Positions 7,986 to 60,702 are shown, counted from the stretch's first letter. The stretch is DNA of 64,000 nucleotides from Candidatus Bathyarchaeota archaeon (GCA_963782525.1 CAWAKC010000007.1:96001-160000), one strand, 5' to 3'. Numbers and translations: made by a program. Notes: generated by a model not told the origin, from the letters alone.

Positions 7986-9413
7986 ATGAGCATCCTTAGC
8001 CACGACAGTTTCTGGAACGCAGTCATAACTATGCCTATGACAAAAAAAATGCTCCAGTTGTCCTTAAAAAAATGCGGCAAATGCGGCAGAACTGTGCTTG
8101 AAGCGGCGCTCGACGATTATGCGGGCAAAACCGACGTCAAATGCGACAGGTGCAACAGTTTGTATTCGCAGGTTATCGGTTTCTGGGTTGAATTTCTGCG
8201 GAGAGGTCTTGGCTTTAAACGGGCAAAAGTTGAGAAACTCTTAACTGACCCCTATGCTAGAAGAGCGGTACTTAACCTGACGAAGTCTTTTGCTTACTTG
8301 GGCATAAAAAAACCCATGTCGCTCTATGCGCCGTTTCTAGTAGTTTGGGATTTCACTCATAAATGCAACCTGAGCTGTAAACACTGCTACTCCAACAGCG
8401 GCGCTGTCAAAGAAGATGAATTATCAACATCTCAAGCTTTGGCGGTTGTTGACCAACTTGCCGACGCAGGTGTTACAGCGTTGGCGTTTAGCGGCGGCGA
8501 ACCCTTAACCCGAAAAGACTTCTTTGAAGTTGCACGGCACGCAGCTGACCGTGGACTCTACGTGTCAGTAGCTTCAAATGGAACCCTGCTCACAAAAGAG
8601 AACGTGCAGAAACTCAAACAAGCTAAAGTTAACTACCTCGACGTCAGCATCGACGGAGCCACCGCCAAAACCCACGACGACTTCCGAGGCGTCCCAGGAA
8701 CGTTCGATAAAGCGGTTGCAGGCCTCAAAATCTGCGTTGAAGCCGACTTATGCGTCTGCATCGCCACAACCGTTGGCAAGAACAACATGGCAGAATTGCC
8801 CGCCATCATAGATTTGGCTGAGGAAATCCATGCTGAGCGGTTTACTTACTTCAATTTTATCCCCACTGGTCGGGGTAAAGCGCATTTTGATCAGGACCTC
8901 TCACCTCAAGAACGTGAAGAAGTCATGCAATACTTGCTTAACCGAATGTCGGCAGGCTGCAAAACCACAATCCTCGCAACTGCACCACAATTGGCGCGTG
9001 TAGCTTTGCAATGTCAAGGTCCCGCTGGTACAGGCGAAGTTATCATGTCCATGGCACACATGCAAACCGTAAGAGTAACCAAAAAAGCCGTGCCCTTGGC
9101 GGATTTTATTGGCGGCTGCGGTGCAGGAAGGCTTTACTGTTCGCTGTCTCCTCAAGGCGACGTTCACCCATGCGTCTTTTTGCCCGTAAACGTCGGGAAC
9201 CTAAAAACAGAAAAATTTCAGGACATCTGGCTAAACGCACCCCTCTTCAAATCGTTCCGCAACAGAGCCAACCTCAAAGGCGCATGCGGCAAATGCGATT
9301 ACAAGTTCATTTGCGGGGGCTGCAGGGCACGTTCAGCCGCATATCATAACGGCGACATGCTCAGCGGCGACCCAGGATGCCTTCAAGGAGTGAAGAATAC
9401 AAAAAATGCCTGA
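7986..9413 (+). CDS. Radical SAM/SPASM protein (NirJ/AhbC/AhbD/PqqE-like) with N-terminal CxxC...CxxC extension
   Basis: WDFTHKCNLSCKHCY and FSGGEPL. SPASM GCGAG..Y....G.V.PC...GNL...CGKCDYKFICGGCRAR...DPGC. Confidence 0.9.
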   Translation: MSILSHDSFWNAVITMPMTKKMLQLSLKKCGKCGRTVLEAALDDYAGKTDVKCDRCNSLYSQVIGFWVEFLRRGLGFKRAKVEKLLTDPYARRAVLNLTKSFAYLGIKKPMSLYAPFLVVWDFTHKCNLSCKHCYSNSGAVKEDELSTSQALAVVDQLADAGVTALAFSGGEPLTRKDFFEVARHAADRGLYVSVASNGTLLTKENVQKLKQAKVNYLDVSIDGATAKTHDDFRGVPGTFDKAVAGLKICVEADLCVCIATTVGKNNMAELPAIIDLAEEIHAERFTYFNFIPTGRGKAHFDQDLSPQEREEVMQYLLNRMSAGCKTTILATAPQLARVALQCQGPAGTGEVIMSMAHMQTVRVTKKAVPLADFIGGCGAGRLYCSLSPQGDVHPCVFLPVNVGNLKTEKFQDIWLNAPLFKSFRNRANLKGACGKCDYKFICGGCRARSAAYHNGDMLSGDPGCLQGVKNTKNA

Positions 9414-10368
9414 TTCCTCATCGAAGAGAGTTAAAATTTTTCGAGCCAAAGAGGACATAAGCGACATCATAAAAGAAGCCGTTGCAAACTCGGGATTGCG
9501 TGGCAAGAAAAAGATTTTTGTCAAACCAAACTTAAGCCACCCGGAATATCTGCCTGGAGTTGTAACCAGCCCCGAGTTGATGCGTCAGCTGGTTGGTTTG
9601 CTTCGGGACGGCAACAGTGAAGTCATCGTGGGCGAATCTAACGGCTTCAACTACCCGTGCTGGACAGCTTTCGACAAAACCGGCGCGGAGGCAGCTGTCA
9701 AAGCAGCAGGTGGCACAGTCATAAACCTCTCAGAAGACAAACTGATCGAAGTAAAATTTCCAGACGGTTGTCCGCTCAAGCGTCTTTTTCTGCCCAAAAC
9801 CATCCTCGATTCAGATGCCGTCGTGGATTTGCCGTTGATGAAAACTCACGAGTTCATGACTTACAGTGGCGCTATCAAAAACCTGTTCGGTTGTGTGCCC
9901 AGCAACAAACGCATTTACCTCCACCCCTACCTGCCAGAAGTCATGTACCGGCTTTACACGCTTTTTAAACCTCAGTTAACGATTATGGATGCCCGAACAG
10001 GCATAGAAGGCAACGGACCTACCAAAGGCAAACCCGTCAAGATGGGACTAATGCTGACTGGCAACGATGCGTTGGCTTTAGACATAACCGCCGCCAAAGT
10101 CATGATGCTCAATTGGAAAGAAACCTACCTCAACTACATCGCTAACAAAACAGGCATGGATGAAGAAGACATCCAAGTCGAAGGCTTACCGATAAGCCAA
10201 GTTGAGCATAGTTTTGAGCCACCCCGAATCGATTTACCAGTGAAGGCACAGATGATGATTTACCAGCACGAATACCTAACAAAAATGCTCTTCTGCTCAC
10301 TGGACATCGTCAGATTGTTCCAGAAGGTAACCATGGCGTATCGGGGCAAACCAATCGAAATAGGCTAA
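9406..10368 (+). CDS. DUF362 domain protein
   Basis: VKPNL, T.P, VIVGES, LPLMKTH, SGAIKNLFG and G.EGNGP motifs. Overlaps the upstream rSAM gene by 8 nt. Confidence 0.85.
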   Translation: MPDSSSKRVKIFRAKEDISDIIKEAVANSGLRGKKKIFVKPNLSHPEYLPGVVTSPELMRQLVGLLRDGNSEVIVGESNGFNYPCWTAFDKTGAEAAVKAAGGTVINLSEDKLIEVKFPDGCPLKRLFLPKTILDSDAVVDLPLMKTHEFMTYSGAIKNLFGCVPSNKRIYLHPYLPEVMYRLYTLFKPQLTIMDARTGIEGNGPTKGKPVKMGLMLTGNDALALDITAAKVMMLNWKETYLNYIANKTGMDEEDIQVEGLPISQVEHSFEPPRIDLPVKAQMMIYQHEYLTKMLFCSLDIVRLFQKVTMAYRGKPIEIG

Positions 10369-11561
10369 CTAATTGCTTCATCGTACACTTTCATGGCGTC
10401 TTTGACGACTATGCGCCAATCATAGTTTTCCACGATTGTTTTCCTAGCCAACGCACCCATTTCCGCTGCGAAGACGGGATGCTCGAGCAGATAGAGGATT
10501 TTTTCGCTGAACGCTTTGGAATTGAAAGGTTCCACCAGAAAGCCGTTTTTGCCGCTTTCGATGGTTTCTGGGATACCGCCCACTGTGGTTGTGACAACGG
10601 GCAAGCCTGTTGCAAGCGCTTCCAAAACGGCGAAGGGATGATGCTCATAGAAGGTGGAAAATGCAAAGACGTCGGCGGCTTGGTAGAGCAGAGGCAATTT
10701 CTTGTCGGGGTAGTAACCAGTGAAGATTATGTTGCCTTTTACGCCGAGTTTTTCTGCGTGAATGATAAGTTTGTGCATTTCGTCGCTTTGCCCCTTGCCT
10801 GAAATGATGAATTTGGCGGTTGGGAAGCGTTTAATGACGGCGGGCATACTTTCGATAAGGGTGAATAAGCCTTTGCGGGCATACAATCTGCCGACGGAGA
10901 CGATAGCTAATTCGTCAGGGTTAAAACCAAGCTCCGCCTTGATCTTGCGCTTATCTGCCGCTGGCTTAAACTTGGTTACGTCAACGCCGTTGTGGATAAC
11001 CCGTATCTTGCTTGGGGGAATCTTGTAATAGTTTGTGAGTTCCCACTTGGTGAAATGGCTGACAGCGATTATTCTTCGAGCCCTATGCAACATACCTTCC
11101 TCAAAAAACCGCAAAAACCAATTAAAACTTACCAAAAACTTCTCGTTTGCATTTAATCGGGTGTAAGGTTCTCCGCGGATGGCTTCGGCTTCGCCTTTCC
11201 ATGTGGAGTGGACGGTGCAAACAAGTGATTTACCAAAGTTGGGAGGCACTGCAAAGTTGGGTGTTAGGGGCAATTGGGGATGGGTTACATCAACGTTTGC
11301 TGTTTTTCTTACTCTTTGGAGTTTGCGGTTGCTGGCAGCGGCTAGCATGAAGGATTTTACAATGGGCATTTTGGGGATTTTTAGGAAGGACACGTCGAGT
11401 TGGGGGTTGACTTGTATATCCTGGGCTTGGTTGGAGCCTGTTACGACAAAGATTTTGTAGCCGTTTTTTAGCAATTCATTGCTGAGGTAGTAGACGTAGG
11501 CGCCTGTTCCCCCAGTCAGCGGCCAGTATTCGGGTGAGATAAAGCAGACTTTATGCGGCAT
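10365..11561 (-). CDS. Glycosyltransferase family 4 (GT-B)
   Basis: EYWPLTGG, IHNGVD, VGRL..RKG and E.HPFAVLEALATGLPVV..VGG.PE motifs. ATG at 11561 is coupled to the upstream stop. Confidence 0.92.
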   Translation of the reverse strand: MPHKVCFISPEYWPLTGGTGAYVYYLSNELLKNGYKIFVVTGSNQAQDIQVNPQLDVSFLKIPKMPIVKSFMLAAASNRKLQRVRKTANVDVTHPQLPLTPNFAVPPNFGKSLVCTVHSTWKGEAEAIRGEPYTRLNANEKFLVSFNWFLRFFEEGMLHRARRIIAVSHFTKWELTNYYKIPPSKIRVIHNGVDVTKFKPAADKRKIKAELGFNPDELAIVSVGRLYARKGLFTLIESMPAVIKRFPTAKFIISGKGQSDEMHKLIIHAEKLGVKGNIIFTGYYPDKKLPLLYQAADVFAFSTFYEHHPFAVLEALATGLPVVTTTVGGIPETIESGKNGFLVEPFNSKAFSEKILYLLEHPVFAAEMGALARKTIVENYDWRIVVKDAMKVYDEAIS

Positions 11562-12568
11562 TACTTGTCCTTCCCTGCAAGATACCTTGCCGTAGTTATT
11601 ATTGCGCCGTCGAACCATGCTCCTGCCCTCACAAAGTATAGCAGCACCAGCCGCAGGGCGGCGCGGTCATTGAATTTAACAGCTATTTTGATAGATGAAT
11701 AAACAAAGTAAACCATCATCGCCAAAAAGATTAAACCCGAAACAATCCACATTAACCTCAGCGGCGGCAAGATGCCCACAAAGAAAAACGCAACGACGCC
11801 CAAGAGTAGGATTGGTTGTACGTTCATTCCTACATCGGTGATCTCGTCACCCTTTGCCAAGTGTCCGTGTTTGAAGTAGAGTTTTAGCGTGTTTTTACCG
11901 TACTGCAGTTGCTGGCGATAATACGCTTTCAAGGTGGGACGATTAAAGTGGTAGCAGACTGCGCTGGACTCGTAGGCGATTTTGTAGCCTTTGGCAGCTA
12001 TGCGAAAGCCAAAGTCAGTGTCATATTGACTGGGTAGTTTCTCATCCCACCCGCCTGCCTCCTCGACGACAGATTTTTTGAGCAAAAGGTTCATGGTAGC
12101 GATTCGCCCAGTGTACTTACCTATGCGTTGGTAGCGGTTTTTGAGTTCGTACCCGATGCTTCTTGCCCATGGGTTGTTGCAGTTCCAGGTTTCGATGCTA
12201 CCGCTGACGCCCGCCACCTTTGGCTCAACGAGGTGCGGTGCAAGTTTGTTTAGCCATTCAACTTCCACCTTGGCATCTGCGTCAATGAATCCCAGAATAG
12301 GAAAAGAAGCAATTTTCAAGGCGTAATTGTAAGCGGCTGGAGCGTTAAGCCGTATAGAAACCACTTTGATTGGGAATTGCTCGGCAATTTCTACAGTGGC
12401 ATCTTTTGAGCCTCCATCCATTACTATAACCTCTACAAAACCTGCTGGATAATTTAGCGCCAAGATTGATTTGAGGCATTCTTCCAGTGTATCTTGGCTG
12501 TTATATGCTGCTACTATAATCGAAACCTTGGGATAAACAGTTTCAGCCACTTGCTTATGCCTTCGCAT
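11561..12568 (-). CDS. Glycosyltransferase family 2 with C-terminal TM helices
   Basis: VSIIVAAYN, DGGSKD, FIDAD, GGWDE and YRQQLQYG motifs. Hydrophobic C-terminus. Start may be the GTG at 12550. Confidence 0.9.
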   Translation of the reverse strand: MRRHKQVAETVYPKVSIIVAAYNSQDTLEECLKSILALNYPAGFVEVIVMDGGSKDATVEIAEQFPIKVVSIRLNAPAAYNYALKIASFPILGFIDADAKVEVEWLNKLAPHLVEPKVAGVSGSIETWNCNNPWARSIGYELKNRYQRIGKYTGRIATMNLLLKKSVVEEAGGWDEKLPSQYDTDFGFRIAAKGYKIAYESSAVCYHFNRPTLKAYYRQQLQYGKNTLKLYFKHGHLAKGDEITDVGMNVQPILLLGVVAFFFVGILPPLRLMWIVSGLIFLAMMVYFVYSSIKIAVKFNDRAALRLVLLYFVRAGAWFDGAIITTARYLAGKDK

Positions 12569-13253
12569 ACGCTAAAACAATCGACAACAGGATTTTAGAG
12601 CCATCTATCACAGGGTCGACACCAGAGTGACCATACGTGCGCTGCTCAAAACTAATAGGCACCTCCGCTACCCTAAAACCTTCTTTAGCTGTTTTAACAA
12701 GCATCTCCGACTCTATCTCGTAGCCGCCTGATTTTAGTTTTTGTTTGCTTAGGACTTCCCGCTTCATTGCGCGGTATCCAGATTGAGAATCAGTTATGGC
12801 AGTTCCCGTTAAGAGCTGAATTAAAAAGTTGAATATACGAACGCCGAAGGCATTTAGTTTTCTTGTTGCAACGTTTTTCTGGTTCAGGTACCTTGACCCA
12901 ATTACCAAGTCAGCTTGGTCTTTTAGGACCGGCGCAAGGACTCGAGGGAGTTCCTCGGGGCGGTGGGAGCCGTCGGAGTCGATAGTGATTATTATATCGC
13001 CCTTTGCCTTAGCGAACCCTGCTCGCAGACCGTAGCCTTTGCCCATGTGCTGTTTTAGGCTGTAGAGTTTGCTGTTATGTTCCCTGACCACTTCAACCGA
13101 GTGGTCGTGTGAGTGGTCGTCAACAACAATTATTTCATATTGCAAGCCAATATGCTGCAAGACAGCTTTTGTACGGTCAATAACGTTGCCTACAGTTAAT
13201 TCCTCGTTGAACACGGGAATTATGACGGAAAGCAGCATTTGGCGTCGACTCAT
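12555..13253 (-). CDS. Glycosyltransferase family 2, DPM1/polyprenol-phosphate glycosyltransferase-like
   Basis: SVIIPVFNEE, VVDDHSHD, GKGYGL, IDSDGSH.PEE, DLVIGSR and DSQSGYRA motifs. Confidence 0.92.
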   Translation of the reverse strand: MSRRQMLLSVIIPVFNEELTVGNVIDRTKAVLQHIGLQYEIIVVDDHSHDHSVEVVREHNSKLYSLKQHMGKGYGLRAGFAKAKGDIIITIDSDGSHRPEELPRVLAPVLKDQADLVIGSRYLNQKNVATRKLNAFGVRIFNFLIQLLTGTAITDSQSGYRAMKREVLSKQKLKSGGYEIESEMLVKTAKEGFRVAEVPISFEQRTYGHSGVDPVIDGSKILLSIVLAYAKA

Positions 13254-13337: not shown

Positions 13338-13892
13338 ATGGAAACCACCCTGAAAGTTAAAGTTGAAGGCGACCGCAAGGTTTGGTTTTCCATGTGGTTT
13401 CTGGGCGCAGTCGTCACTTTTGGCGTTGCGTTCTTTCCAATGTTTTACCGTTTGGTCGACGGCAGGAACAGGCATTTCCGGCGCGAAGCAGAGTTTGAAG
13501 AGAAGGTTGCAGCTTATTCGAAGAAACAGGGAAAAAAACTGCCGTCAGCAAGTGAGCGATTTAAAGCGATGAATGCGAAAGCTTGGGCAGCCAGCATTAT
13601 TCTAATCGTGCCAGTCTTCATCATAGTTTACTTGTTATCCAGAGATTTAGCGAATCATGAACAAAACCAAGATGCGTTTCTTGCGGCTGCTCTGCCAGAG
13701 CGAGTTTTCATGCCGCAGACGATACCCATAAAAACTTATGCCATAATAACTTTAATTACGTTGGGCGTTGGGGTTATTTACTGGCTCTACAAGGTTGTTA
13801 ACTTGTACAACGCTCACTATAAGGCGCATCTACAAGTGGAGAAAGAAATGGTTAGGCTGATGGAGGAGCAAAAACCTGTCGAGCAACTGTAA
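13338..13892 (+). CDS. Membrane protein, DUF4234-like (repeated helix-loop unit)
   Basis: Repeated 'VTFG/ITLG..(F/Y)..Y....N.H' units. Confidence 0.6.
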   Translation: METTLKVKVEGDRKVWFSMWFLGAVVTFGVAFFPMFYRLVDGRNRHFRREAEFEEKVAAYSKKQGKKLPSASERFKAMNAKAWAASIILIVPVFIIVYLLSRDLANHEQNQDAFLAAALPERVFMPQTIPIKTYAIITLITLGVGVIYWLYKVVNLYNAHYKAHLQVEKEMVRLMEEQKPVEQL

Positions 13893-14997
13893 AAAACGTA
13901 GGTTCGTTAGCCACGGCGGAGACATCTGGGGTTTTAGCAGAAAATACAACATACCTCTCGAAGACGTACTCGAATTCAGCGGACCCATAAACTTTCTTGG
14001 ACCTTCACCAAAAGCTGTCGAAGCTGTAAAGCAGAATGCCCGTTTAATCAAGTTCTATCCGGACCCAAACCCAGTCGAATTCAAAGAGGAAATCGCCAAG
14101 TACGTAGGCTGCGGCATAAAAGAAGAAAACATTCTCTTGGGAAACGGCTCCATCGAACTCATCTACTTGATAACTGAGATTCTGCCTCGTGGTCACAAAG
14201 CAGTAATTCCTGTGCCGTCTTTCTCAGAATATGAGAAAGCGACCCTGCGAGTGAGTGGTGAACCCATTTTTGTCCAGTTGCCGGAGGATTTTTCTTTGGA
14301 TTTGGACAAAATAAAGAAAGCAGTTACCGAGGACACAAAAATCATGTGCCTATGCAACCCCCACAGTCCCTCAGGTAAACTCTACAGCAAAAAAGGACTC
14401 TTAGACCTCGTGGAGTTCTGCAACAAAAAAGACATCATTTTTAGCGTTGACGAAAATTACATCGAATTTGCCGACCAAAGCTTAGATAACACGTTAGCGG
14501 GAATGGTCAAAGACTACGAGAACCTTTTTGTTATTCGTTCAGTCACCAAATTCTATGGCATGGCAGGCATCCGCTTCGGCTACGCCTTAACTGCGGGAAA
14601 TCTAATTGACAAGCTTGAAACCATGCGGCTCCCGTGGAGCATCAACGGATTAGCATGCCAAGTCACGATGGCAGCTATAAACGACACCCAATTCATACAG
14701 AACACCAAAGAAACAATCGCTAAAAACCGCCAAGAACTCGCTCAAAGCCTCAGCCAAATCCCAGGCTTACACGTCTACCCATCAGTAACAAACTTCCTAC
14801 TCGTAAAAATACAGAACAGCAAAATCACATCCACCATGCTAAAAGATCTTTTGGCGAAAGAACGAATCTTAATTCGCGACTGTTGTACTTTCATGGGATT
14901 AGACGATCACTACTTTAGAGTAACCATCAGGTCAGCCAAAGACAACCAAATACTCGCTGAAAAAATAAAACAAATCCTCAACAAAAATGGCGTTTGA
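13876..14997 (+). CDS. cobD: Threonine-phosphate decarboxylase (CobD) / class I-II PLP aminotransferase
   Basis: The frame extends upstream of the ORF-track call (14137) through SHGGDIW..FSGPINFLGPS..YPDP. Also GNGS.ELI, CNPHSPSG, DENY and PLP-lysine SVTKFYGMAGIRFGY. Start inferred as CTG at 13876. Confidence 0.75.
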   Translation: MSSNCKKRRFVSHGGDIWGFSRKYNIPLEDVLEFSGPINFLGPSPKAVEAVKQNARLIKFYPDPNPVEFKEEIAKYVGCGIKEENILLGNGSIELIYLITEILPRGHKAVIPVPSFSEYEKATLRVSGEPIFVQLPEDFSLDLDKIKKAVTEDTKIMCLCNPHSPSGKLYSKKGLLDLVEFCNKKDIIFSVDENYIEFADQSLDNTLAGMVKDYENLFVIRSVTKFYGMAGIRFGYALTAGNLIDKLETMRLPWSINGLACQVTMAAINDTQFIQNTKETIAKNRQELAQSLSQIPGLHVYPSVTNFLLVKIQNSKITSTMLKDLLAKERILIRDCCTFMGLDDHYFRVTIRSAKDNQILAEKIKQILNKNGV

Positions 14998-16091
14998 TGA
15001 CTGTTTTGCAGAAAAGAAGGCTGGGTAGAACAAATCTTCAGGTCTCAACAGTTGGGTTTGGCGGAACATGGATTTCTGAGTTAACAACGACTAATGCAGT
15101 ACAGGTTGTTAGGAGAGCCTTTGAACGTGGCATCACCTATTTTGACACCGCCAAACTAGACGGCGATAGCGAAGAAAAAATCGGCGCCGCCCTTCAAGAC
15201 GTCAGAGAAAAATGCGTCATCGCAACCAAGACGGGGTCCCGAACAAAAAAGGAGTCCCTTGAAGACTTCAAAGGCAGCTTAAAACGGCTTAGAACTGACC
15301 GATTAGACATCATTCAACTTCACGGAATCGACGACGAAAAAACCCTTGCCAGAGCTATGGGAGTGGATGGTTCGCTGCAAACTTGCAAAGAAGCACGCAA
15401 GCAGGGACTGGCGGATTTCATCGGCATTACTGGGCATAAGCCGCGGGTTTTAGTTAAAGCAGTGGAGTCTGGCGAGTTTGATTCGGTTTTGGTTCCGCTA
15501 AACGTTGTGACTAGGCAGGCTTTGGAGGAACTGTTGCCGGTAGCAAAAGCGCATGACGTAGGTGTCATAACGATGAAACCACTGTCAGCTAAAACCTCCA
15601 CTTTAATCACCTGCCTCTACAACCCTTCACTTTCCCTTCTTTCAGATGAGCCAGAACTCAAAGCCCTACTAGGAGAAAACGTCGATTATAGGGTTAACAG
15701 TGCGTTGAGGTATGTGCTGTCGCAGGATGTGGCAACTGTTATTCCAGGGTTAAAATCCATCTATGAAGTGGAAACCGCAGCTAAAGCTGCAGAACAATAC
15801 AGCAGACTAACCCCAGAAGAACAAGAAAAATTCAGCTTTAACCTTGGGAAAAGTTACTGCAGAGACTGCGGACAATGCCTAACCTGCCCACAGAACATCA
15901 ACATCGCAGCCATACTCCGATTCCACACGCTCTTTGAGGTTTATGGGTTAAAGGTTTGGGCTAAAAAACTCTACAGAGGATTAGATGTTGGGGTTGATAA
16001 TTGCACAATGTGCGGCGAGTGTGAGCTAAAATGTCCCTACCAATTACCTATTACAACCATGTTAAAGAAAGCAAAGTTGGATTTCCAATAA
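14997..16091 (+). CDS. Aldo/keto reductase with C-terminal 4Fe-4S dicluster domain
   Basis: RRLGRT, GFGG, FDTA, SE..IG, ATK, IGITGH and MKPL motifs. CRDCGQCLTCP and CTMCGECELKCPY. Confidence 0.9.
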   Translation: MTVLQKRRLGRTNLQVSTVGFGGTWISELTTTNAVQVVRRAFERGITYFDTAKLDGDSEEKIGAALQDVREKCVIATKTGSRTKKESLEDFKGSLKRLRTDRLDIIQLHGIDDEKTLARAMGVDGSLQTCKEARKQGLADFIGITGHKPRVLVKAVESGEFDSVLVPLNVVTRQALEELLPVAKAHDVGVITMKPLSAKTSTLITCLYNPSLSLLSDEPELKALLGENVDYRVNSALRYVLSQDVATVIPGLKSIYEVETAAKAAEQYSRLTPEEQEKFSFNLGKSYCRDCGQCLTCPQNINIAAILRFHTLFEVYGLKVWAKKLYRGLDVGVDNCTMCGECELKCPYQLPITTMLKKAKLDFQ

Positions 16092-16102: not shown

Positions 16103-16915
16103 CTATTTTTTGGCTATCCAATAACTCATTTCTGGCTTGCAAGTAATTTTATAAAGGTAAAAAAGTGGGTTTCCTATCCAAGTTGCATGTTGGTAATAGT
16201 CTGCCCGTTTGGATTGTTCAAAGTTTTTTTTGAAAAATGCTCCTACAAGATTATGGTCTAGTGGATGTTCTTTTTTGTGCCAATAATCCGACAGAGTATA
16301 ATCAATTGAGGGAAGTTTTATCCCCGCCATCTGGAAATACAGGATATTTAGGATTGGGTTGGAGTGAAAATAGAAGAGTTTTACGATATTCGCTATTGGG
16401 TTTGGTTCGTCTTTCCAGTAAAATGGCGAAGCCTCGTGGTCGATGTATACCATGCCGCCTTTTTTTAAGAACCCTGAAAGCTTCTGAAGAGTGACTATGT
16501 AGTCGGGAAGATGGTGCAGGACTGAGTAACATGCAATTAAATCGAATTCGCCTGCTTTAAGGTCGACGGCTTCTATTGGCGAGTTGATAACGACTAATTT
16601 TTTATCTGCTATTTCTTTTTTAAACTTGTTTTTCAAAATGGCGCACATTTCAGCAGAAATATCGATGGCTGTAACAGTGTAGCCCATGCCAAGAAGTTTG
16701 CCAGTTAAGTTTCCTGTGCCTGCCCCAAAATCAAGAGCCCTCTTATGGTTATCCGTTATTAATTTGTCTGCGGTTTTTAGGGTGTAGACTATTCGTTTTT
16801 GTTCTTTTTTGCTGTATACTTCGGGGTGGATTGCTTCGTAGTATTTTGCTTCAAACCGGTGGACGGTTACGTTGGCTTGATGTATGCTTTCCTGTAGGTT
16901 TTCTGTGTTAGACAA
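16103..16915 (-). CDS. Class I SAM-dependent methyltransferase
   Basis: ALDFGAGTG (motif I), AIDIS..M, FDLI...SVLHHLPD and LKKGG. Confidence 0.9.
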   Translation of the reverse strand: MSNTENLQESIHQANVTVHRFEAKYYEAIHPEVYSKKEQKRIVYTLKTADKLITDNHKRALDFGAGTGNLTGKLLGMGYTVTAIDISAEMCAILKNKFKKEIADKKLVVINSPIEAVDLKAGEFDLIACYSVLHHLPDYIVTLQKLSGFLKKGGMVYIDHEASPFYWKDEPNPIANIVKLFYFHSNPILNILYFQMAGIKLPSIDYTLSDYWHKKEHPLDHNLVGAFFKKNFEQSKRADYYQHATWIGNPLFYLYKITCKPEMSYWIAKK

Positions 16916-24199: not shown

Positions 24200-24384
24200 C
24201 TTAGCATGTTTGCCCTTAAAAACCAAACGCAACCTTTAGCAGTTAATAGGGTAAACATTAGGCGAGCAAAAATCATTAAAAATATGTAGATTGGACATCG
24301 ATCTTTTCCCAAGTTATTCAATCGTCATGTTTACCGTAATCGATATTAACTGTTTACCTAAATTATTTCGAAAGTGGGGTAACA

Positions 24385-31776: not shown

Positions 31777-31801
31777 TTTTTTCTTTCCTTTTGTTCATAA
31801 T

Positions 31802-32072: not shown

Positions 32073-32090
32073 TGGTTTATTTGATTCTGA

Positions 32091-44111: not shown

Positions 44112-44305
44112 GATGCTTTACCGTCTTTTTTCACTTGTGCTATTGGCATCGTTCAAAGTAAATACTTTAACGGTTCAAATGACAAAAGCGCAAAATTAAA
44201 TTGAGGCTGCAGAACCTGAAATTATCATTCTTACTTGATAACCCTGAGTAACTGGGATATGCTTATTTAATTCTGGTTTTTTAGTATAGGAAAGGTCATT
44301 TGCGT

Positions 44306-45781: not shown

Positions 45782-45919
45782 AAACAAAAAAAGAAAAAGG
45801 GTTGTTGTTTTAGTTTTGATGGTTGTGGCTTATTTCTTTCTGAGCATCAATAGAGCCAAAACAATGGCCACTATGATGATGAGAACGAACAAACCTGCAA
45901 TCGCTGGAACAAAGTATTG
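45782..45919. repeat. 138-bp near-identical direct repeat, copy 1 (anchor-coding 3' end + terminator of paralog 3)
   Basis: Matches 50172-50309 at all but 2 adjacent positions (ga vs ag). Confidence 0.92.
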
Positions 45920-50171: not shown

Positions 50172-50309
50172 AAACAAAAAAAGAAAAAGGGTTGTTGTTT
50201 TAGTTTTAGTGGTTGTGGCTTATTTCTTTCTGAGCATCAATAGAGCCAAAACAATGGCCACTATGATGATGAGAACGAACAAACCTGCAATCGCTGGAAC
50301 AAAGTATTG
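50172..50309. repeat. 138-bp near-identical direct repeat, copy 2 (3' end + terminator of paralog 4)
   Basis: Matches 45782-45919, offset 4390 bp. Confidence 0.92.
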
Positions 50310-53036: not shown

Positions 53037-53075
53037 ATTTTTTCTTTCCTTTAAATTTTTTCTTTCCTTTTTTCT

Positions 53076-53141
53076 GAGCAAGAAGCTATTAAGGGATAGC
53101 CCCTACTCGGAGGTAGCTCCTATTCTCGGAATGCTTATAAA
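53076..53141 (-). promoter_or_regulatory. TATA box plus 5'-leader stem-loop of paralog 4
   Basis: TTTATAAG at 53141-53134. GAGUAGGGGCUAU-loop-AUAGCUUCUUGCUC hairpin at 53108-53076. Confidence 0.7.
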
Positions 53142-53363
53142 TTTTATGGGAGTTACACATGGTATTTGAAGCATAAATAAGGTAGTTTTTTTAGATAGCT
53201 ACCTAATTTTTCGCCGAATTAAATTCTAATAAAAGCAATAATACACGATATATTTCTTATGATACATTAGTTAAACTCTGAGAACAATTCAGGGTGATAA
53301 TAGTTCATTATCCAAAAAAAATTAAAAAAAATAAAAAGAAAATTTGTTTTGTTTGTGCTTTGT

Positions 53364-56111
53364 TTATGCTCGTTTTCTTAGAAGCAGTATGTTTGCAACG
53401 CCGACTAAGACTATCACAATGATGATAGCGATTATGCCAGGCACGATGTATGTGTCAGCTACAGATTGTGCGAGTGACGTTGGAGCGGGGGTTGATGATG
53501 GTCCATTCGCAACTGTTAGGTAGGTTGTTGAAGATGATGGCCCGTATGAGGCAGAGCCTGCGAAAGTAGCGATGATTTGGTATTTGCCAGGAACTTCTGG
53601 AGTGTAAGATAAGCCATAATTTCCATATTTGTCGCTTGTTGTATTGCCTACGTTGACTAGGTTACCATTGGGGTCAACTGCTGTTAGGGTAACTGGTACA
53701 CCGGTTGCGTTTGCTGGCATTGGTCTGTCGTGGAACATGTATTCCATCCAAGCATCCATCGAAGCATCTGAAATTGCAGGGGTGCCTTTGAGGGCTGTGT
53801 CTAAGTCGCCGTTGATGTTGTGTTTGCCTGATGGTGATTGGTCGGTAACTGTGCCTGTGATTGTTACTTGTGCTCCTAGTACTGGTGCAAGTTGTGGTGC
53901 TGAAACTGTAGTTGCGCTTGGTCCTCTACCGAGGCAGTAGATTTGGTTGTCGTGGTTATCGAGGTAAAGTATACGGCTGTCAGACATCACAACTTTTGAA
54001 AGCCCGTTGTTTGCTGTGTTTGGATAAGCCATTAATCTCCAGACGAGTTCGCCTGTGTCTCCATCAATGCAGAAGATAGCTCCGTCGCGTCTAATCGGAG
54101 TGGTTTCTCCTGCCCATCCTGTTGATCCATGTAGGTAGATGAGGTCGCGTCCAGTTGCGTTGTTGTCGACGTAGAAGCATAAGCTGAGAGGTGTGTATGT
54201 TAGTCCTTGTCCTTCTAGGTTACCTAGTAGTGGTGCTGACCAGTTCCATAGGGATTCGCCTGTGAGTGCATCAAAGCAATGCATTTGTCCCATTGAGCCA
54301 ATAGTAAAGACTTTTCCGTTGTGAGCTGTGAGTGAGAATCCTTGGAATGCAAATTGGTTAGGTTCATTGTAAGTCCATAGTTGATTTCCTGTTGAGAGGC
54401 TGTAAACCCAGACATTGCCAGTTACTCTTTCAATGTACCAGAAGATGTTATTTTGTACGGATATTCCGAAGGATAATCCGCCGCCGTTTGTTGTGTTTGC
54501 ACCGACAGGGTCAGCTGCATATGGTGCGTTGAAAGTTACGCTCCAAGTTATGTTGCCCCATGTGCCGTCTTTTAAGCTGTAAGCCCATATAGAGCCAGGT
54601 GCATTTCCTCTCACGTCGTTTCGACCTGCTGTGCCAACTACTATTTCGTCACCAGGGAAAATATCGCGGACCAAAGCTGTTTCGTTGAAGACGGAGTTAC
54701 GTGGACCATATAAGCTTGCAACTGATATGTTCATTGTGTATCCGTTGTAGCCGTTGTAGATTGCGCCGGCAGTTGTTGTTGACATGCCTGGAACCAGGTT
54801 TCCGGGTGTGCCGGGTCTCCAGAACCAGTATGCGTTGTCGCCTGTGTCAATGTTTGGTACGTTTGATTTTCCATTAATGAGTGTTGCTGGGTAAGCTACT
54901 CCATATTGGCTTCTCCACCATACAGCTTGAGTTGAGTTCCAGATTTGCAAGTAATAGTTGGGTGTTTGCCCTGCTGGAGCTAAGTTGGCTATGTTGGCGT
55001 AGCAGATGCTACCGATTGAGTCTCTGAATTGTGTGCCGGTTGTGGATACGTTAGCGATTTTGCATATGGATTTTCCACTGTAAGCGTCAAACATTTCCCA
55101 AGCGGATAAGCCTGCGGCGTTAGTATTTCCTGCTGGTAATGTAACACCTGATGTTGCGTATAGGTAAGCGAAGCCTCCGTGTTGGTTGGGTGAGTCATAA
55201 TTTAGAACTTGGCCTAATGAGGGGATAGCCTGGGTACCGTCGGTATTGTTTACGTAGAAGAGCTGGTTGCCGGTGTATAGGTCGATGCAGTACCAACCGT
55301 ATCTTGGTGGGTGCTGGTCTGAATAGTAAGCTTTGCCTTCAAGGACGATCAATGGACTTGAGAAGCCTTCGTAAGCGATACCGTTGTAGTAGCCTGTGTC
55401 ATCGTATCCACCCATGATGCCTCCAACCCAGCTAGATGTGCTCCAGAGCACGTGGCTGCTTTCTGGACCTTCCTGGTTGGGGATGCCTCTTGACCTAAGT
55501 TGTGTTTCATAATAGGTTCCACCTAACCATTGACCCATGGCAACGTTGCCCCAACCTCTGTTAACGTCGTAGACTGGGCGTGTCCAGTAGTCTGTTGGAA
55601 GAGGTGTTTCTTGGTATGTTGGTATTGGATCTTGTTGTACGATGAAGGTGTTTGGTCTGCTTATGCTGGCGTTGTAGACGTTCCCGACGTTAGCGTTGCC
55701 AGTGTTGCCTGGGGCACCTGTTAAGGTGTCTCCTGGGAAACTGGCTTGGATTGTGTACGTTCCGACTTCGGTAGGCACGTATGTTATGAATGCGCCTCCA
55801 ACAGGGTCAGATGTGATTGGTCCTTTTGTTTCGTTGACTCCACTAGGCGATGTGATGGTTAGATAAAAGTCCCATCTGTCACCCATGGATCCACTTGCAG
55901 TCGGCGGATAAACGTTGAGGTACATCTCTATGAGTATGGTTTGGCCAACGCCTACGACGGGCTGACCTGGAAATACGTAGGTGTATGTGCTGTAGACTGT
56001 GTTTGGGTATGCTTTGGCAGGTTGCATTGTAAGCATCATTGCGAGAGAAGTCATCAATATTACGATTAAGGCAATTGAAATTGCCTTATTTTTATTTAAT
56101 ATATTTTGCAT
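53364..56111 (-). CDS. Large secreted, anchored PQQ-like beta-propeller surface protein (paralog 5)
   Basis: Start MQNILNK at 56111. YYNGIAYE, YDSPNQHGG, WMEYMFH and ADTYIVP-TM-RKRA. EHS replaced by GWAGET. Confidence 0.88.
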   Translation of the reverse strand: MQNILNKNKAISIALIVILMTSLAMMLTMQPAKAYPNTVYSTYTYVFPGQPVVGVGQTILIEMYLNVYPPTASGSMGDRWDFYLTITSPSGVNETKGPITSDPVGGAFITYVPTEVGTYTIQASFPGDTLTGAPGNTGNANVGNVYNASISRPNTFIVQQDPIPTYQETPLPTDYWTRPVYDVNRGWGNVAMGQWLGGTYYETQLRSRGIPNQEGPESSHVLWSTSSWVGGIMGGYDDTGYYNGIAYEGFSSPLIVLEGKAYYSDQHPPRYGWYCIDLYTGNQLFYVNNTDGTQAIPSLGQVLNYDSPNQHGGFAYLYATSGVTLPAGNTNAAGLSAWEMFDAYSGKSICKIANVSTTGTQFRDSIGSICYANIANLAPAGQTPNYYLQIWNSTQAVWWRSQYGVAYPATLINGKSNVPNIDTGDNAYWFWRPGTPGNLVPGMSTTTAGAIYNGYNGYTMNISVASLYGPRNSVFNETALVRDIFPGDEIVVGTAGRNDVRGNAPGSIWAYSLKDGTWGNITWSVTFNAPYAADPVGANTTNGGGLSFGISVQNNIFWYIERVTGNVWVYSLSTGNQLWTYNEPNQFAFQGFSLTAHNGKVFTIGSMGQMHCFDALTGESLWNWSAPLLGNLEGQGLTYTPLSLCFYVDNNATGRDLIYLHGSTGWAGETTPIRRDGAIFCIDGDTGELVWRLMAYPNTANNGLSKVVMSDSRILYLDNHDNQIYCLGRGPSATTVSAPQLAPVLGAQVTITGTVTDQSPSGKHNINGDLDTALKGTPAISDASMDAWMEYMFHDRPMPANATGVPVTLTAVDPNGNLVNVGNTTSDKYGNYGLSYTPEVPGKYQIIATFAGSASYGPSSSTTYLTVANGPSSTPAPTSLAQSVADTYIVPGIIAIIIVIVLVGVANILLLRKRA

Positions 56112-56138
56112 TTTTCTTTCCTCTTTTTTTGTTTTTGC

Positions 56139-56208
56139 GTTTGACAAAGATAGTGTTATTATGTATCCTGTCAAACCGTTAAGTAGGGTGCTTCGTTTAA
56201 TTTAAATA
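56139..56208 (-). promoter_or_regulatory. TATA box plus 5'-leader stem-loop of paralog 5
   Basis: TATTTAAATT at 56208-56199. GUUUGACAGGAUA-11 nt loop-UAUCUUUGUCAAAC at 56176-56139. Confidence 0.7.
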
Positions 56209-56303
56209 ACTTTGGTAAAATAAGACAAAAAATAAAAAAATCCCAAAAAAATTGACTATAGACCCATATTTATTAATTAAAAAAAAATAAAAAGGGAATT
56301 TTA

Positions 56304-59017
56304 TTAGGGTTTCTTTCTTAGAGCTAAGACTATTACGACTGCTGCGATTGCGATTGCTACGATTATTGCGACAGATACTGGGATTAGATATGTGTCAGCT
56401 ACAGATTGTGCTTGCACTATTGCTGTAGGTGCTGGTGTGGTTGGTTCTGAACCTATAGTTAGGTAGGTTGTTCCAAACGATGAGCCATAAGAGTTAGAGC
56501 CTTCGAAGGTAGCGATTATTTGGTATGTGCCTGGAACGTCTGGTTTGAAGGCTATGCCGTAGTTGCCTGCAGCGTCGCTTGTAGTGTCCCCGATGTGGAC
56601 GAGGTTGCCGTTGGGGTCGATTGTATCTAATCTAACTGGAACGCCTGTTGCGTTTGTGGGCATTGGTCTTTGATGGTACATATATTCCATCCAAGCATCC
56701 ATCGAAGCATCTGAGATTGCTGGAGTGCCTTTTAGTGCACGGTCTATGTCGCCGTTGATGTTTCTGCGTCCATACTGAGATTGGTCTGTCACTGTACCAG
56801 TAAGTTCAACAGTTGAGCCTAGAGGTGGAACTATTTGTGGTGCGGAAACTGTGGTAGCACTTGGGCCTTGACCAAAGCAGTAGATCATCTCGTCGTGGCT
56901 ATCTACCACTAAGAGTCGTCCGTCTGCTATGATTGGGGCTGAACTTGGCCAGTCAGTTAACATCCAAATCATCTTACCGTCGGTAACGTTTACGTCCCAA
57001 ATCTGTGCGTCACGTCGGATGGGGTTGTTGTTTGAGTGCTCGCTTGAGTAGAGGTATAGCTGTCCGTCGCCTGTAAGGAAGCCAAATGATGTTGGTGTGT
57101 ATTGGTATGGTGTTTCGTCTACGCCTACTGGTGGAGCGGTCCAGTTCCAAAGTGAGGTGCCTGTCTTTGCATCGAATGCTCTGACTACTCCTGCGTATCC
57201 ACCGCAATCGATGAATTCTCCCTTGTAACAGACTGCTGTTGCTCCGCCATAGAATTGGAATTGCTCTGCTGGTGGCGCTTTCCACGCTAAACTTCCGTCT
57301 GCGAGGTTGTAGATGAAGTAGGTTCTTGTCATTGCGTCATAGTACCAGAAAATGCCTTCCTGTATGCAAACGCTGCTGAAAGCTGTGTTTTTATTGCTGA
57401 ATTGCTCGGCTTGACCATATGCGTCGCCTACGTTTGCTGGAGCCGTGAAGTTGTAGTTGTAGAGCACTTGTCCTACGAACCCTGGCTTCAAGTTAAGTCC
57501 AACTACGCTGCCTGGAATACTGAGGGAGCCGTTGTTAGAGCCTGCGTAGATTATGACCATTTGGTCGTCTGGGATAACTTGGCGAACATTGATAGTGCTG
57601 AGAGATAGGGAGGGTATGCTTACGTTTGCTGAGTAGCCGTTTCTACCATCATACGTGTAGTTTAAATTGGGTCGCCACATCCAGTTTGAGTTGGTACCCG
57701 AAGTATCTTCGTGTGCAACGTATGATGCATACATGATTACTTGCGAAGTGTTCCAAACTTGGAGATACCATTGAGGTGCTGCGTTTGCCGGAGCCAAATT
57801 GACCAAGTTGTACCTTAGAATGCTGCCGTCTGGTCCGACTGCCGATGTTCCAGTGCCTCCTCTTACCGTACTGCGTCCGCCTATTGTATCAGTTGTTGTA
57901 ACGTTCGCTATGCTACATATATAATTGCCAGAGAAGTCATCGTACATTTCCCAAGTATTCGTCTTGCCAATTGGACTGGTTACCCAGTAGTAGCCTATGG
58001 TTCCGTGCTGGTTAGGATTGTCCTCTACTAGGACTTGCCCGAATGCTGGTGCACCAGAAGGTATGCTGCCTGTGCTTGAGAAGGATCCACCTGCGCCCGA
58101 AACTGCACTCGATGTATTGTTTCTGTAGTAGATTGTTTCTCCACTGTAAAGATCGCAACAGTACCAGCCCTCCTTCGGGTTAGTTCCTACAGCGTAGTAG
58201 AATTGGCCGTTAAGAATAATTGATGGACCGCCGTAGCTTTCGTATGATTGGCCACTGTAGTACGAGTTGTCGGGGCTTGAAGAATTAACAGTTGAGTAGC
58301 CGCCTGCGATTCCGCCGTTGAAGAAGGGTCTTGTCCACAGAACGTGTGAGCTTGATGGACCTTCAGTGTAGGGGTTGTATCTGCTGCTGCCGAACGTTGA
58401 AAGTTCATTTGCTGCTAAGTATTGACCCATTACGACTGGACCCCAGCCTCTGTTCGTGTCGTATACTGGTCGACTCCAGTAGTCTGTTGGAAGCGGAGTT
58501 TCTGTATATCTCGCCATTTGTTCCGTCGTCACTGTCAAAGTTTGTGTTTCGCTTAAGGCAGATTCAAAGACAACGCCGATTGGAGTCCATCCTTTGGGTA
58601 CATTGTTAGGATTAGGTGGTGAACCTGAAGGCCACCAACCAGCACCCTGAGGAGCAACTAAGCCTCTGCTTGCGCCGCCGTCGATAATACATTGTCGCAT
58701 AATAGCTTGAACGACGTATGTGCCAGTCTCTGTTGGAACATAGTTTGTATAGCCAGCGCCTACTGGGTCAGATACTACGCCTTTAATAGTATCGTTGGTT
58801 CCATCTGGTCTGATGATGTTGACGTCGAATGTGAAGCGGTCGCCGTATTCGCCTAGAGCTGTTGGCGGAAGTTTATCGCAGAAGAAACAAAAAAGACTGG
58901 TTTGACCAAGACCTATGGTGTTGGGAGCAATGGATAGGTACACCATGTCTTTGTAGAATCGTGCATATGCTGCATTGGCAGGTTGTGTGAAGTTTTTTTA
59001 TTATAGAATTTTTGCAT
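56304..59017 (-). pseudogene. PQQ-like beta-propeller surface protein paralog 6; signal-peptide core missing and frameshifted
   Basis: ATG at 59017 in the family start context gives MQKFYNKKT, out of frame with TQPANAAYARFYKDMVYLS (paralog 4: TTQATTAYMNFYKDMVYLS). No hydrophobic h-region between them. Body 56304-58946 is intact. Confidence 0.75.
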
Positions 59018-59116: not shown

Positions 59117-59397
59117 TTTTGGTGAAAACAATGATTTCAGTTTCATATTAAACATTTTTTGGTGGTTTAAGTGTCAAACCAACTATCAGTGCAACTGTTT
59201 GTAGGACTACCCTGAGAAGTGAGTAATTAGAAGGCAATTATTTCAATTTCAAACTGAGTGACAAACCAAAATTTGACCACTCCTCTTTAATTGCAAATTT
59301 ATCACCGTATGCGATTTTTCTCAATTATAACATATTTACGGAAACTTTATTACGTAATCGAGCAATTTTTACCAATACATTCAAGGAGAGACCGTCA

Positions 59398-60702
59398 ATG
59401 ACAAAAGCATCAGCCCAACAGAAAAGCAGATCAGACGTTTATGAATCACGGGAAAATTGGCCTCCATACACTTACCGGGATTACCCAAACATCAAACCTG
59501 AAACCTACAAGGCCTTCCAAGAATTTCTGAACACCGAGAATACTTCAGGAAGACTCATGGAGTTGCAGCCGTGGATATCTGTTTGCGACTCAAAATGTGC
59601 TTTTTGTTACTTCCCAACTTCGCCAACAAACAAAGTGGAGATAGAAAAATATCTTTTCTTGCTCAAAAAAGAACTTGAAATGTATGCAAAAACCAAGTAT
59701 GTAAAGACAAGTTGGTTTGACGAGATAGTTCTGGGCGGTGGAACTCCCAGCGTTTTAACTGCCGAGCAGATGATCGACCTGATCGATTTTTGCAAGGAAC
59801 GATTCAACATAAACAAAGAATATTTCATCAAAGTAACCGGGTCCTCAAAGACTCTGGCGCTACCAAAAATCGACCAACTCGCCGCCTACGGCGTCTACCA
59901 AATGGACATGGGCGCCCAAACCTTCGACGACAAAATCCGAAAGATGCTCTGTTTACCCGACGGCGCTGCAGACGTCGAAAAAGCAATTCGCCATGCTCGG
60001 AAACTGGGTCTATGTGTCTGTGTGGATCTAATGTATAATCTTCCGGGGCAAACGATGGAGAGCTGGATAAACACACTCAAAAAAGCCATCGAGTTAGACG
60101 TGGAAATCGACGCATATTCACTACACGTTGACCCTGGCACGATGCTGGAAAAAATGATTAAAACAGGGAAATCTCCGCCTGTTGGAGACGGCGAATACGA
60201 GAAGCAAATGTACCTAACAGCCTACAACATGTTGACACAAGCAGGCTACAGCGCAGTCGGTCACGACCGCTACAGCCGCAATGAATGGCACATGAGAGAA
60301 AACTGCCTTAACGGTTGGCCATGGGGAGGCATACTCACCACCGGCGCAGGCTGCTTTATGGGTTATCTGCAGCGGTTCAGCTACAGCAACATCGAAAGCA
60401 TCGATGAATACATGAAGACAGTCAAATCGGGGAAACTGCCTATCCAAAGACTTTCAGAGTCCTCGGACGACGAAATGATGCGTCGAGAGATGAGTAGGCT
60501 GTATTTGCGTTTGCCCGTAAGCAAGAAAGAGTTTATGGAGAAATTCGGCAAACTACCAGAAGATGTATTTCCCAAGCAACTCAAAAGCCTCAAGGAGAAG
60601 GGGCTAATCGAGATAGATGACAAGGAAGTTAGAATTACCAAGCAGGGCGAAGTCTGGAAGGGCAACATTGCTTGGGAATTTGCAGCAAAACAGCCTTGTT
60701 AA
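59398..60702 (+). CDS. HemN-like (class C) radical SAM protein
   Basis: CDSKCAFCYF, LGGGTPS, GAQTFD, DLMYNLPGQT and G.GA motifs, HemN_C-type C-terminal helical domain. Confidence 0.88.
   Translation: MTKASAQQKSRSDVYESRENWPPYTYRDYPNIKPETYKAFQEFLNTENTSGRLMELQPWISVCDSKCAFCYFPTSPTNKVEIEKYLFLLKKELEMYAKTKYVKTSWFDEIVLGGGTPSVLTAEQMIDLIDFCKERFNINKEYFIKVTGSSKTLALPKIDQLAAYGVYQMDMGAQTFDDKIRKMLCLPDGAADVEKAIRHARKLGLCVCVDLMYNLPGQTMESWINTLKKAIELDVEIDAYSLHVDPGTMLEKMIKTGKSPPVGDGEYEKQMYLTAYNMLTQAGYSAVGHDRYSRNEWHMRENCLNGWPWGGILTTGAGCFMGYLQRFSYSNIESIDEYMKTVKSGKLPIQRLSESSDDEMMRREMSRLYLRLPVSKKEFMEKFGKLPEDVFPKQLKSLKEKGLIEIDDKEVRITKQGEVWKGNIAWEFAAKQPC

Follow-up and report, generated by a model that had tools for sequence, protein, structure and literature searches.

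Clusters that modify glycerol dialkyl glycerol tetraethers (GDGTs) have been described in archaea, and adjacent gms-gmm gene pairs are published (PMC11214058); the same paper reports multi-copy 'Gmm2' genes in Bathyarchaeota and describes the Gmm2 clade only as potentially noncanonical. For Bathy-6 genomes, tens of surface genes with pyrroloquinoline quinone (PQQ) domains and 7-20 genes for B12-binding radical S-adenosylmethionine (SAM) enzymes (B12-rSAMs) per genome are already in print (PMC11697101). These and all further publications are drawn on here in part. In this study, a window of 64,000 nucleotides from a Candidatus Bathyarchaeota archaeon (GCA_963782525.1 CAWAKC010000007.1:96001-160000) was analysed. 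It corresponds to contig C7:96001-160000 of a genome termed G000 (2.87 Mb, 96% complete), and its homologues carry Bathyarchaeota names. A sequence-only reading had marked window positions 7986..60702 as an island dense in radical SAM (rSAM) genes and interleaved with surface β-propellers of a family named PNQHG. The island was located correctly, while its boundaries were set too narrowly on both sides: the window covers the central part of a biosynthetic island of ~60-100 kb that is conserved and spans C7:93-184 kb (about 90 kb) in G000. Our favoured reading, which we regard as evenly balanced, is that the island makes a dedicated second membrane ether lipid that is bridged and tailored, glycosylated, capped by repurposed B12-loop chemistry and serves the surface propellers.

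Gene content was established by open reading frame (ORF) calling combined with Pfam/NCBIfam family scans and motif scans. The nine rSAM genes of the earlier reading were recovered, namely six B12-binding enzymes (named by position as 19981, 21367, 27410, 39926, 41403 and 44300), two SPASM proteins (7986 and 49003) and one HemN/HutW-like protein (59398), and CxxxCxxC is kept in all nine. The scans also bore out the CobD-like and CbiB genes, the glycosyltransferases (GT2/GT2/GT4), the SAM methyltransferase, the Fe-S aldo/keto reductase, DUF362 and Amidohydro_3, and in the right half, rSAM genes flank propeller genes in the ORF calls as claimed. That gene list was sound as far as it went; it had missed the second set of Tes, UbiA, CobS and CobY and the likeness to Gms and Gmm. 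Among the 25 best families listed for each, none of the nine rSAMs reached a curated NCBIfam cut-off. Chance clustering was ruled out by density: nine of the 48 PF04055 matches in G000 lie within 52.7 kb (0.88 expected, P 4e-7), as do six of its 13 B12-rSAMs (0.24 expected, P 2e-7). A mobile island was also rejected when judged by composition, with a GC content of 39-49% showing no clear step and no tRNA found.

To the left, CobY2-CobS2 stand back to back with epimerase-UbiA2-Tes2 (C7:93325-98130). The right part contains RnfC/D, a third SPASM gene, SAM synthetase, AsnB/nitrilase and CbiZ2 as well as two Cys-rich proteins without assignment. It also encodes a B12-rSAM, the seventh of the island, MtrH next to a corrinoid protein, and a pair of STT3-like membrane proteins. 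The same gene set was found in reshuffled order within the genus, and it recurs in further genera and in another family (f9), so that the island is shared by two Bathyarchaeia families. Neighbours of CobS2 were counted within 10 kb for the best 80 of 166 CobS2 loci, 28 loci having short flanks. The epimerase was present in all 80, followed by Tes2 and UbiA2 (78 each), CobY2 (71), the 7986 orthologue (58), DUF362 and GT4 (50 each), the two GT2 genes (48 and 47), CobD2 (41), a B12-rSAM (22) and a PNQHG propeller (7). No CobS2 from outside the Bathyarchaeia was recognised among these best 80 of 166 loci; two are labelled otherwise, yet are 70-72% identical and syntenic. Four CobS2-like full-length clusters at 50% identity scored above 240 bits. 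The view that the genes form one conserved biosynthetic unit was thereby borne out.

The island and the propellers are distributed together. The class was represented by 121 genomes, in which the CbiB2 clade and a second CobS occurred in an identical set of 14 (with a further CobS fragment in G049); propellers were detected in this set plus one 550-contig bin. Among 251 genomes of the order, 110 contained both CbiB2 and propellers, five CbiB2 only, six propellers only and 130 neither; misses are likely in this count because only three propeller candidates were scored per genome. Tes2 follows the island (123 of 251). The same split was seen within family f1 and within f9. G277 (own genus; one 3.1-Mb contig, 88% complete) is without CbiB2, CobS2, Tes2 and island-clade B12-rSAMs, and none of its 33 candidates was a propeller. 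G327 is the only carrier of seven genomes in its genus and has all three of its propellers inside a compact 71-kb island (P 6e-5). Enrichment inside the island was likewise significant in G000 (6/34) and G001 (3/20); the counts for G001, G003 and G087 were merged by hand. G233 has a scattered island that looks eroded and in which the beta gene is split; CbiB2 gave no match there, and a single propeller fragment was seen. In G209, the sole propeller carrier of family f6, a 10-kb contig bears a propeller next to genes of the island (5% contamination). Island and propellers occur together, are both absent from G277 and sit together in G327, so that the independent distribution which the sequence-only reading had named as its refutation was not borne out.

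The genes of the window are as follows (positions, strand, description and basis):
1..667, + strand: 3' part of a UbiA/DGGGPS-like prenyltransferase, second copy UbiA2 (PF01040; whole gene G000 C7:95756-96667)
655..2130, + strand: Tes-family rSAM, second copy Tes2 (above the NF045702 cut-off)
7986..9413, + strand: rSAM/SPASM protein with six-helix N-terminal domain, putatively like Gms, the glycerol monoalkyl glycerol tetraether (GMGT) synthase (family scan, model, tree)
9406..10368, + strand: DUF362 protein, overlapping the Gms-like gene (family scan; 50/80 CobS2 loci)
10365..13253, - strand: operon of GT4, GT2 and GT2, dolichyl-phosphate-mannose (Dol-P-Man)-synthase-like (family scans; 50, 48 and 47 of 80 CobS2 loci)
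13338..13892, + strand: small DUF4234-like membrane protein whose gene overlaps CobD2 (lead from Atlas, with the family on 16-31% of members; 42/80 CobS2 loci)
13876..14997, + strand: CobD2, the second gene like threonine-phosphate decarboxylase, probably starting with CTG (36% identity with the canonical copy, C4:75835)
14994..16091, + strand: aldo/keto reductase with Fe-S domain (family scan; present in the islands of G001, G087 and G327)
16103..16915, - strand: class I SAM methyltransferase (family scan)
17200..17946, + strand: B12-associated type of DUF71 protein and not Dph6 (His at the diagnostic position)
19981..21360, - strand: B12-rSAM, orthogroup alpha (family scan, tree)
21367..22779, - strand: B12-rSAM, orthogroup gamma (family scan, tree)
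22898..23614, - strand: second DUF71 protein of the B12-associated type (His at the diagnostic position)
23708..24232, - strand: membrane-anchored TrmB-like regulator, divergent from CbiB2 (weak PF01978; same position in G001 and G003)
24385..25386, + strand: CbiB2, second amide-forming CbiB and island marker (TIGR00380; 39-41% identical to the canonical copy at C4:75k)
25706..27256, - strand: Amidohydro_3 protein, single copy in G000 (family scan)
27410..28873, + strand: B12-rSAM, orthogroup delta (family scan, tree)
28957..34796, - strand: two PNQHG-family surface proteins with signal peptide, Ig, β-propeller, Ig and C-terminal membrane helix (scans, model)
35077..37632, - strand: double-PQQ-propeller surface protein of a family separate from PNQHG, recurring in the island (family scan, synteny)
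37896..39929, + strand: secreted hypothetical protein whose relatives recur in the island (synteny)
39926..41398, - strand: B12-rSAM, orthogroup beta (tree)
41403..42800, - strand: B12-rSAM, orthogroup alpha, second copy (tree)
44300..45742, + strand: B12-rSAM, orthogroup beta, second copy (tree)
45830..48694, - strand: PNQHG-family propeller 3 (sequence scan)
49003..50079, + strand: AhbD/NirJ-like SPASM rSAM, island-conserved (56-96% identical in G002, G003, G087 and G327)
50220..58946, - strand: PNQHG-family propellers 4-6 in tandem, 4 and 6 being 65% identical (sequence scan)
59398..60702, + strand: HemN/HutW-like class C rSAM, island-conserved (below every NCBIfam cut-off; synteny)
60813..61478, - strand: membrane protein recurring in the island, with a weak lead to an energy-coupling factor (ECF) S component (Atlas 0.85, lead only)
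61680..64000, - strand: RnfC and RnfD-like membrane protein, an RnfD-ferredoxin fusion in other genomes (family scans, synteny)

G000 has two Tes and two UbiA genes. Tes2 scored 464.9 on NF045702 (cut-off 450), compared with 673.7 for the housekeeping copy (C1:597345), to which it is 38% identical. UbiA2 is 30% identical to the other UbiA (C9:101252), and its orthologues reached 154-168 bits on the two best models, below the equivalog cut-offs for digeranylgeranylglyceryl phosphate (DGGGP) synthase (269-353). The 7986 protein has a CX3CX2C rSAM core, followed at the C-terminus by a SPASM domain. Its AlphaFold model (predicted local distance difference test, pLDDT, 75) consists of six N-terminal helices, the rSAM core, bridging helices with a β-hairpin and SPASM, the same layout as described for Gms (PMC11186832). 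Relatives at E<=1e-75 were found in 90 of 201 Thermoproteota genomes, mostly in single copy, with whole families lacking them; those outside the island lineages are 35-47% identical. At five of 20 such loci, a ~470-aa B12-rSAM adjoins the gene, an arrangement like that of the published gms-gmm pairs (PMC11214058). These five enzymes group with the orthogroups alpha, beta and gamma (FastTree 0.82, 34-42% identity), apart from the other B12-rSAMs of G000. The six window B12-rSAMs, all over 400 aa with a B12-binding and an rSAM domain, comprise alpha (two), beta (two), gamma and delta, so that five of them belong to groups clustering with the gms-adjacent enzymes; G327 has one of each. Enzymes of this kind are not necessarily methylases, as Ted from another Bathyarchaeon shows (bioRxiv 2025.10.20.683597). 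The initial tree was a quick version with most delta orthologues filtered out, which the final tree includes.

Other identities were considered for the rSAMs and rejected. The best scores on the AhbD/NirJ, HemN/HutW, BchE and BzaD equivalogs (308/500, 186/400, 269/481 and 139/450) were all below cut-off, as was HpnJ on NCBIfam. In PDB sequence searches, no closely related solved structure came up for the B12-rSAMs (best AprD4), 7986 (best PqqE), the F5 family, 60813 or GTC2; the C-type glycosyltransferase (GT-C) protein GTC1 matched STT3 weakly (E 1e-5). Two ~692-aa rSAM/SPASM proteins with long N-terminal extensions (G000 C7:234345 and C7:333844) are 31-40% identical to the Gms-like family.

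G000 also contains two sets of CobD, CbiB, CobY, CobS and CbiZ (32-41% identical), but one CobT. In CobS2, the last Asp of the loop-2 motif HxDxxxDxxD (Asp89 position) is replaced by Asn in 80 of 80 loci, whereas CobS1 has Asp in 38 of 38. This Asp is essential in Salmonella CobS, where D89A abolishes growth (PMC8092220). CobS2 has the loop-6 motif GxxGDxxG and exceeds the TIGR00317 cut-off (118 > 110), and CbiB2 (24385-25386) passes TIGR00380 with 232.1 > 165.9. On TIGR01140 (cut-off 290.55), the full-length CobD2 orthologue of G008 scored 283.5 and the canonical copy 306.9. The two proteins 17200 and 22898, previously called Dph6-like amide ligases, do belong to PF01902. They are not diphthine-ammonia ligases of the Dph6 type, as both have His where Dph6 has Glu (position 188, EGGE/DxE motif). 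This His is the signature of the B12-associated DUF71 subgroup (PMC3541065) and they are therefore assigned to that type; a Glu-type PF01902 copy of G000 lies at C12:34532. The canonical CbiB (G000 C4:74856-75825) is split into two frames (234 + 98 aa) by a frameshift or an assembly error; if the split is real, CbiB2 is the only intact CbiB in G000. CobY1 and CobY2 are seemingly swapped in L017 and L032 (G007, G005) and L192-L193 (G263), where a CobY2-type gene follows CobS1; in G263, a CobY1-type gene follows CobS2.

The spare loop set could be read differently, as making a variant cobamide or modified tetrapyrrole that serves as cofactor of island enzymes or propellers, with the lipid genes as a neighbouring module; we consider this unlikely. 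The corresponding route, which seems improbable to the same degree, would have salvaged cobinamide trimmed by CbiZ2/DUF71, altered by the AhbD-like, HemN-like and some B12-rSAM enzymes and re-looped by CobD2, CbiB2, CobY2 and CobS2. The complete second loop set with CbiZ2, the B12-type DUF71 proteins, CbiB2 above the CbiB cut-off, BtuFCD, CobT and CobS1 inside the G327 island and a CbiA-like amidase in G087 all speak for it. So does G000 itself, which has no CbiD and therefore appears to live on salvage. However, there is no second CobT in G000, CobS2 is without the Asp essential for a cobamide synthase, and its back-to-back position to epimerase/UbiA2/Tes2 is kept in 78-80 of the 80 loci.

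In the favoured lipid reading, UbiA2 and Tes2 would build an isoprenoid (tetra)ether core, 7986 would bridge the lipid chains, and the four conserved kinds of B12-rSAM (six genes in the window) would methylate or otherwise tailor the core. The epimerase and the GT4/GT2 enzymes may add sugar. CobD2 would provide an aminoalcohol phosphate, CbiB2 the amide, CobY2 the nucleoside diphosphate (NDP)-activated form and CobS2 the phosphodiester, so that the spare loop set would cap the head group with an acyl-aminoalcohol-phosphate. On the outer face, the pair of STT3-like GT-C proteins may be active, and cofactors and electrons would come from B12 uptake and salvage, SAM synthetase, the Fe-S reductase and RnfC/D. 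Outside the cell, the product is probably used or bound by the surface propellers, which are not rSAM substrates in this reading. Gene content, conservation, duplication, the CobS2 motif change and the co-distribution are observed. The chemistry of each enzyme family is established knowledge; its application to the island is inference, and this covers all reactions, the product and what the propellers do. A more far-reaching form of the idea, which we think quite doubtful, is an as yet undescribed membrane-tethered cofactor or an anchor similar to glycosylphosphatidylinositol (GPI): a carboxylic acid, possibly a remodelled corrinoid, would be linked via amide-aminopropanol-phosphate to a glycosylated, bridged and multiply methylated tetraether, displayed by GT-C proteins on the outer face; tens of propellers would use it as a dock or prosthetic group, and RnfD/ferredoxin would carry electrons through the membrane.

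Several observations weigh against the lipid reading or its link to the propellers. CbiZ2, DUF71, the CbiA-like amidase in G087 and the AhbD- and HemN-like enzymes also point to a corrinoid substrate. Support in the tree is only modest, and the gms-adjacent group does not include orthogroup delta. That 7986 is Gms-like is predicted from the published description of Gms, the distribution and the gene-pair pattern, and the alpha, beta and gamma B12-rSAMs are predicted to be Gmm-like from a comparison with unnamed gms-adjacent neighbours, rather than from reference sequences of Gms, Gmm or Grs. Six orthologue accessions were absent from the supplements of the Gms/Gmm papers, which is uninformative as no MCW40 accession is listed there. 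As to the propellers, their enrichment inside the island was not significant in G003 (2/16, P 0.08) and G087 (1/15, P 0.35), 28 of the 34 loci in G000 lie outside it, and tandem copies are non-independent and inflate the G000 figure. G172 has CbiB2 with only partial propeller matches. Of the five Tes2-positive genomes in the genera g72 and g93, four were examined. All four have a diverged island, and the stretch read contained no PNQHG propeller in any of them; ~1000-aa double-PQQ propellers are present instead in two, and two contigs end early. Their CbiB2 (48-49%) is below the cut used, hence they were counted as 'neither'. The island therefore goes with secreted PQQ-type propellers generally and not strictly with the PNQHG family. 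Moreover, the carriers are kin from two families, with few independent events, and kinship inflates the counts.

In another explanation, to which we give a low probability, the island would tailor ordinary membrane lipids, with B12 supply genes nearby for the methylases, and the propellers would be an independently expanded family able to insert at any site, its shared distribution being due only to ancestry and lifestyle in common. It is consistent with the scattered propellers, with the island propellers being non-orthologous between genera, with a propeller near only seven of the 80 CobS2 loci, with the g72/g93 islands and with the propeller expansion by duplication that is in print (PMC11697101). 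It does not readily account for the absence of all dispersed propellers in G277 and of all but one fragment in G233, the three of three inside the G327 island and the same split within f1 and f9.

The PNQHG family comprises 34 loci in G000, six of them inside the island and five within 10 kb of a B12-rSAM. The propeller model (pLDDT 77) consists of signal peptide, Ig, a β-propeller of PQQ-type fold, Ig and membrane anchor, and the fold search gave only generic Ig and propeller matches, best BamB and tetrathionate hydrolase. The His of the PNQHG motif is not invariant, while His239, Trp242 and Tyr272 are. Adjacent Cys pairs are a feature of PQQ-dependent dehydrogenases; no conserved one was found in the propellers, PqqD was not found in G000, and the C-termini showed no obvious sorting signal in common (archaeosortase was not searched for). 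Between genera, neighbouring island propellers are ~30% identical and not orthologous, whereas the rSAMs keep 48-90%. The propellers are extracellular and the rSAMs cytoplasmic.

The invariant residues, the direct adjacency in the window and the SPASM enzyme 49003, which is without assignment, would suit a direct modification of the propeller proteins by the rSAMs before export, by methylation, cross-links or a protein-derived cofactor. We rate this as very unlikely. Neither PqqD nor a precursor-peptide recognition element (RRE) was found (short precursor ORFs were not searched), no fixed rSAM-propeller pairing or substrate gene was seen across the genomes, and 7986 and five B12-rSAMs resemble lipid enzymes. 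Direct rSAM-propeller pairing or peptide maturation was thus not supported, the propellers being non-orthologous across genera and mostly located elsewhere. Tetraether-lipid tailoring is likelier than peptide maturation because of the second lipid enzymes, the CobS2 Asn, the 7986 architecture and the B12-rSAM grouping. From the range of products first envisaged (cofactor, tetrapyrrole-like molecule, lipid or glycan), a lipid fits best; its use by the propellers we infer. That the propellers are PQQ-type oxidoreductases attacking lignin together with the rSAMs, as proposed in PMC11697101, we hold to be highly improbable, given the biosynthetic content of the island, the missing PqqD and Cys pair and the best fold matches, although the propeller fold, RnfC/D that could pass electrons across the membrane and the reported abundance in lignocellulose habitats (PMC11697101) would agree with it.

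Some further features were noted in and around the island. DUF2096, a metallo-β-lactamase-rhodanese protein, ThyA, a thermosome gene and a hypothetical gene (2194-7842) stand between Tes2 and 7986; this insertion is a local rearrangement, because CobY2 directly precedes the 7986 orthologue in most relatives. A YVTN/YncE-type propeller (42992-44111, - strand) appears as two overlapping ORFs (280 + 107 aa); its counterpart in G008 is one 326-aa ORF, and it is not a conserved island member. No other Rnf subunit lies beside RnfC and RnfD (61680-64000). An RnfD-ferredoxin fusion is encoded 1.2 kb from a PNQHG propeller at G000 C11:18909-20210, and the islands of G087, G288 and G327 have the same form. 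The MtrH-like methyltransferase, a stand-alone 141-aa corrinoid protein and the two divergent STT3-like membrane proteins (G000 C7:177407-183595) form a conserved island block. Proteins of ~300 aa with a conserved Cys/His pattern (CxCxxC) are found at G000 C7:171278-174472 and also at C1:417863 and C4:160789; two or three copies flank CbiZ2 in most of the islands read, with only weak glycoside-hydrolase-like hints. A recent HemN-like duplicate (C7:227173, 85%) and a double-PQQ propeller duplicate (C7:239531, 86%) with a second SAM synthetase between them sit 70-80 kb to the right of the window. Locus L151 (G327 C3:50-63 kb), which lies left of the island in G327, contains a run of genes without match in G000, including 1361-aa and 705-aa ORFs, and may be a mobile element.

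Bathyarchaeia with the island are abundant in anoxic soils, sediments and digesters. The link ties two of their largest gene expansions, the unexplained ones of surface PQQ-like propellers and of B12-rSAMs (PMC11697101), to one definable pathway, for which G327 offers a minimal gene set and G277 a natural negative. The island provides candidates for unassigned archaeal lipid chemistry, and butanetriol dibiphytanyl glycerol tetraethers (BDGTs) are named as a Bathyarchaeia biomarker in a review (PMC12694404). If B12 loop paralogues do build a lipid head group or tether, cobamide enzymes would thereby have a new use. For two island rSAM orthologues, members of their clusters have been deposited as Ca. 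Bathyarchaeum tardum sequences (WGM89998.1, WGM90012.1). This organism is enriched in culture, and lipid and corrinoid analysis may therefore be possible now.

The island is real, conserved and undescribed as a unit; its families themselves are known, and what this analysis adds is the propeller link. The literature searched, which excludes subscription papers and two supplements, did not describe the island, its second loop set or the propeller link, and Supplement Table S1 of PMC11697101 has no cobS/cbiB terms. Tables S3/S4 and Fig. S10 of that paper and Figs S7 and S16 of the PNAS SI appendix lie outside this scope and may show island parts or the Gmm2 placement. The Bathy-6 PQQ-domain and B12-rSAM expansions are very likely the same two expansions as here; PMC11697101, in the part drawn on, treats these families as lignin-attacking without describing their co-location or an island. 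All families of cobamide loop assembly and salvage (CobD, CbiB, CobY, CobS, CbiZ, B12-type DUF71) occur in the island, where CbiB2 and CobS2 pass NCBIfam cut-offs. The second set differs from that system by its 32-41% identity to the canonical one, the absence of a second CobT, the change of Asp89 to Asn in CobS2 and its being locked to lipid genes. GPI anchors and archaeosortase-dependent archaetidylethanolamine anchoring follow an amide-aminoalcohol-phosphate-sugar-lipid logic with Dol-P-sugar synthase-like and GT-C enzymes. The island may resemble them by analogy, but its propellers keep a C-terminal membrane helix. With the gms-gmm(-grs) GDGT-modifying clusters (PMC11214058; PMC11186832) and Tes, the island has in common that Tes-family, Gms-like rSAM/SPASM and B12-rSAM genes stand together. 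Compared with them the island, as read from its genes, is a single unit of 60-100 kb in which second copies of Tes and UbiA are joined by four orthogroups of B12-rSAMs, by glycosyltransferases and GT-C proteins, by a spare set of B12 loop genes, by RnfC/D and by surface propellers.

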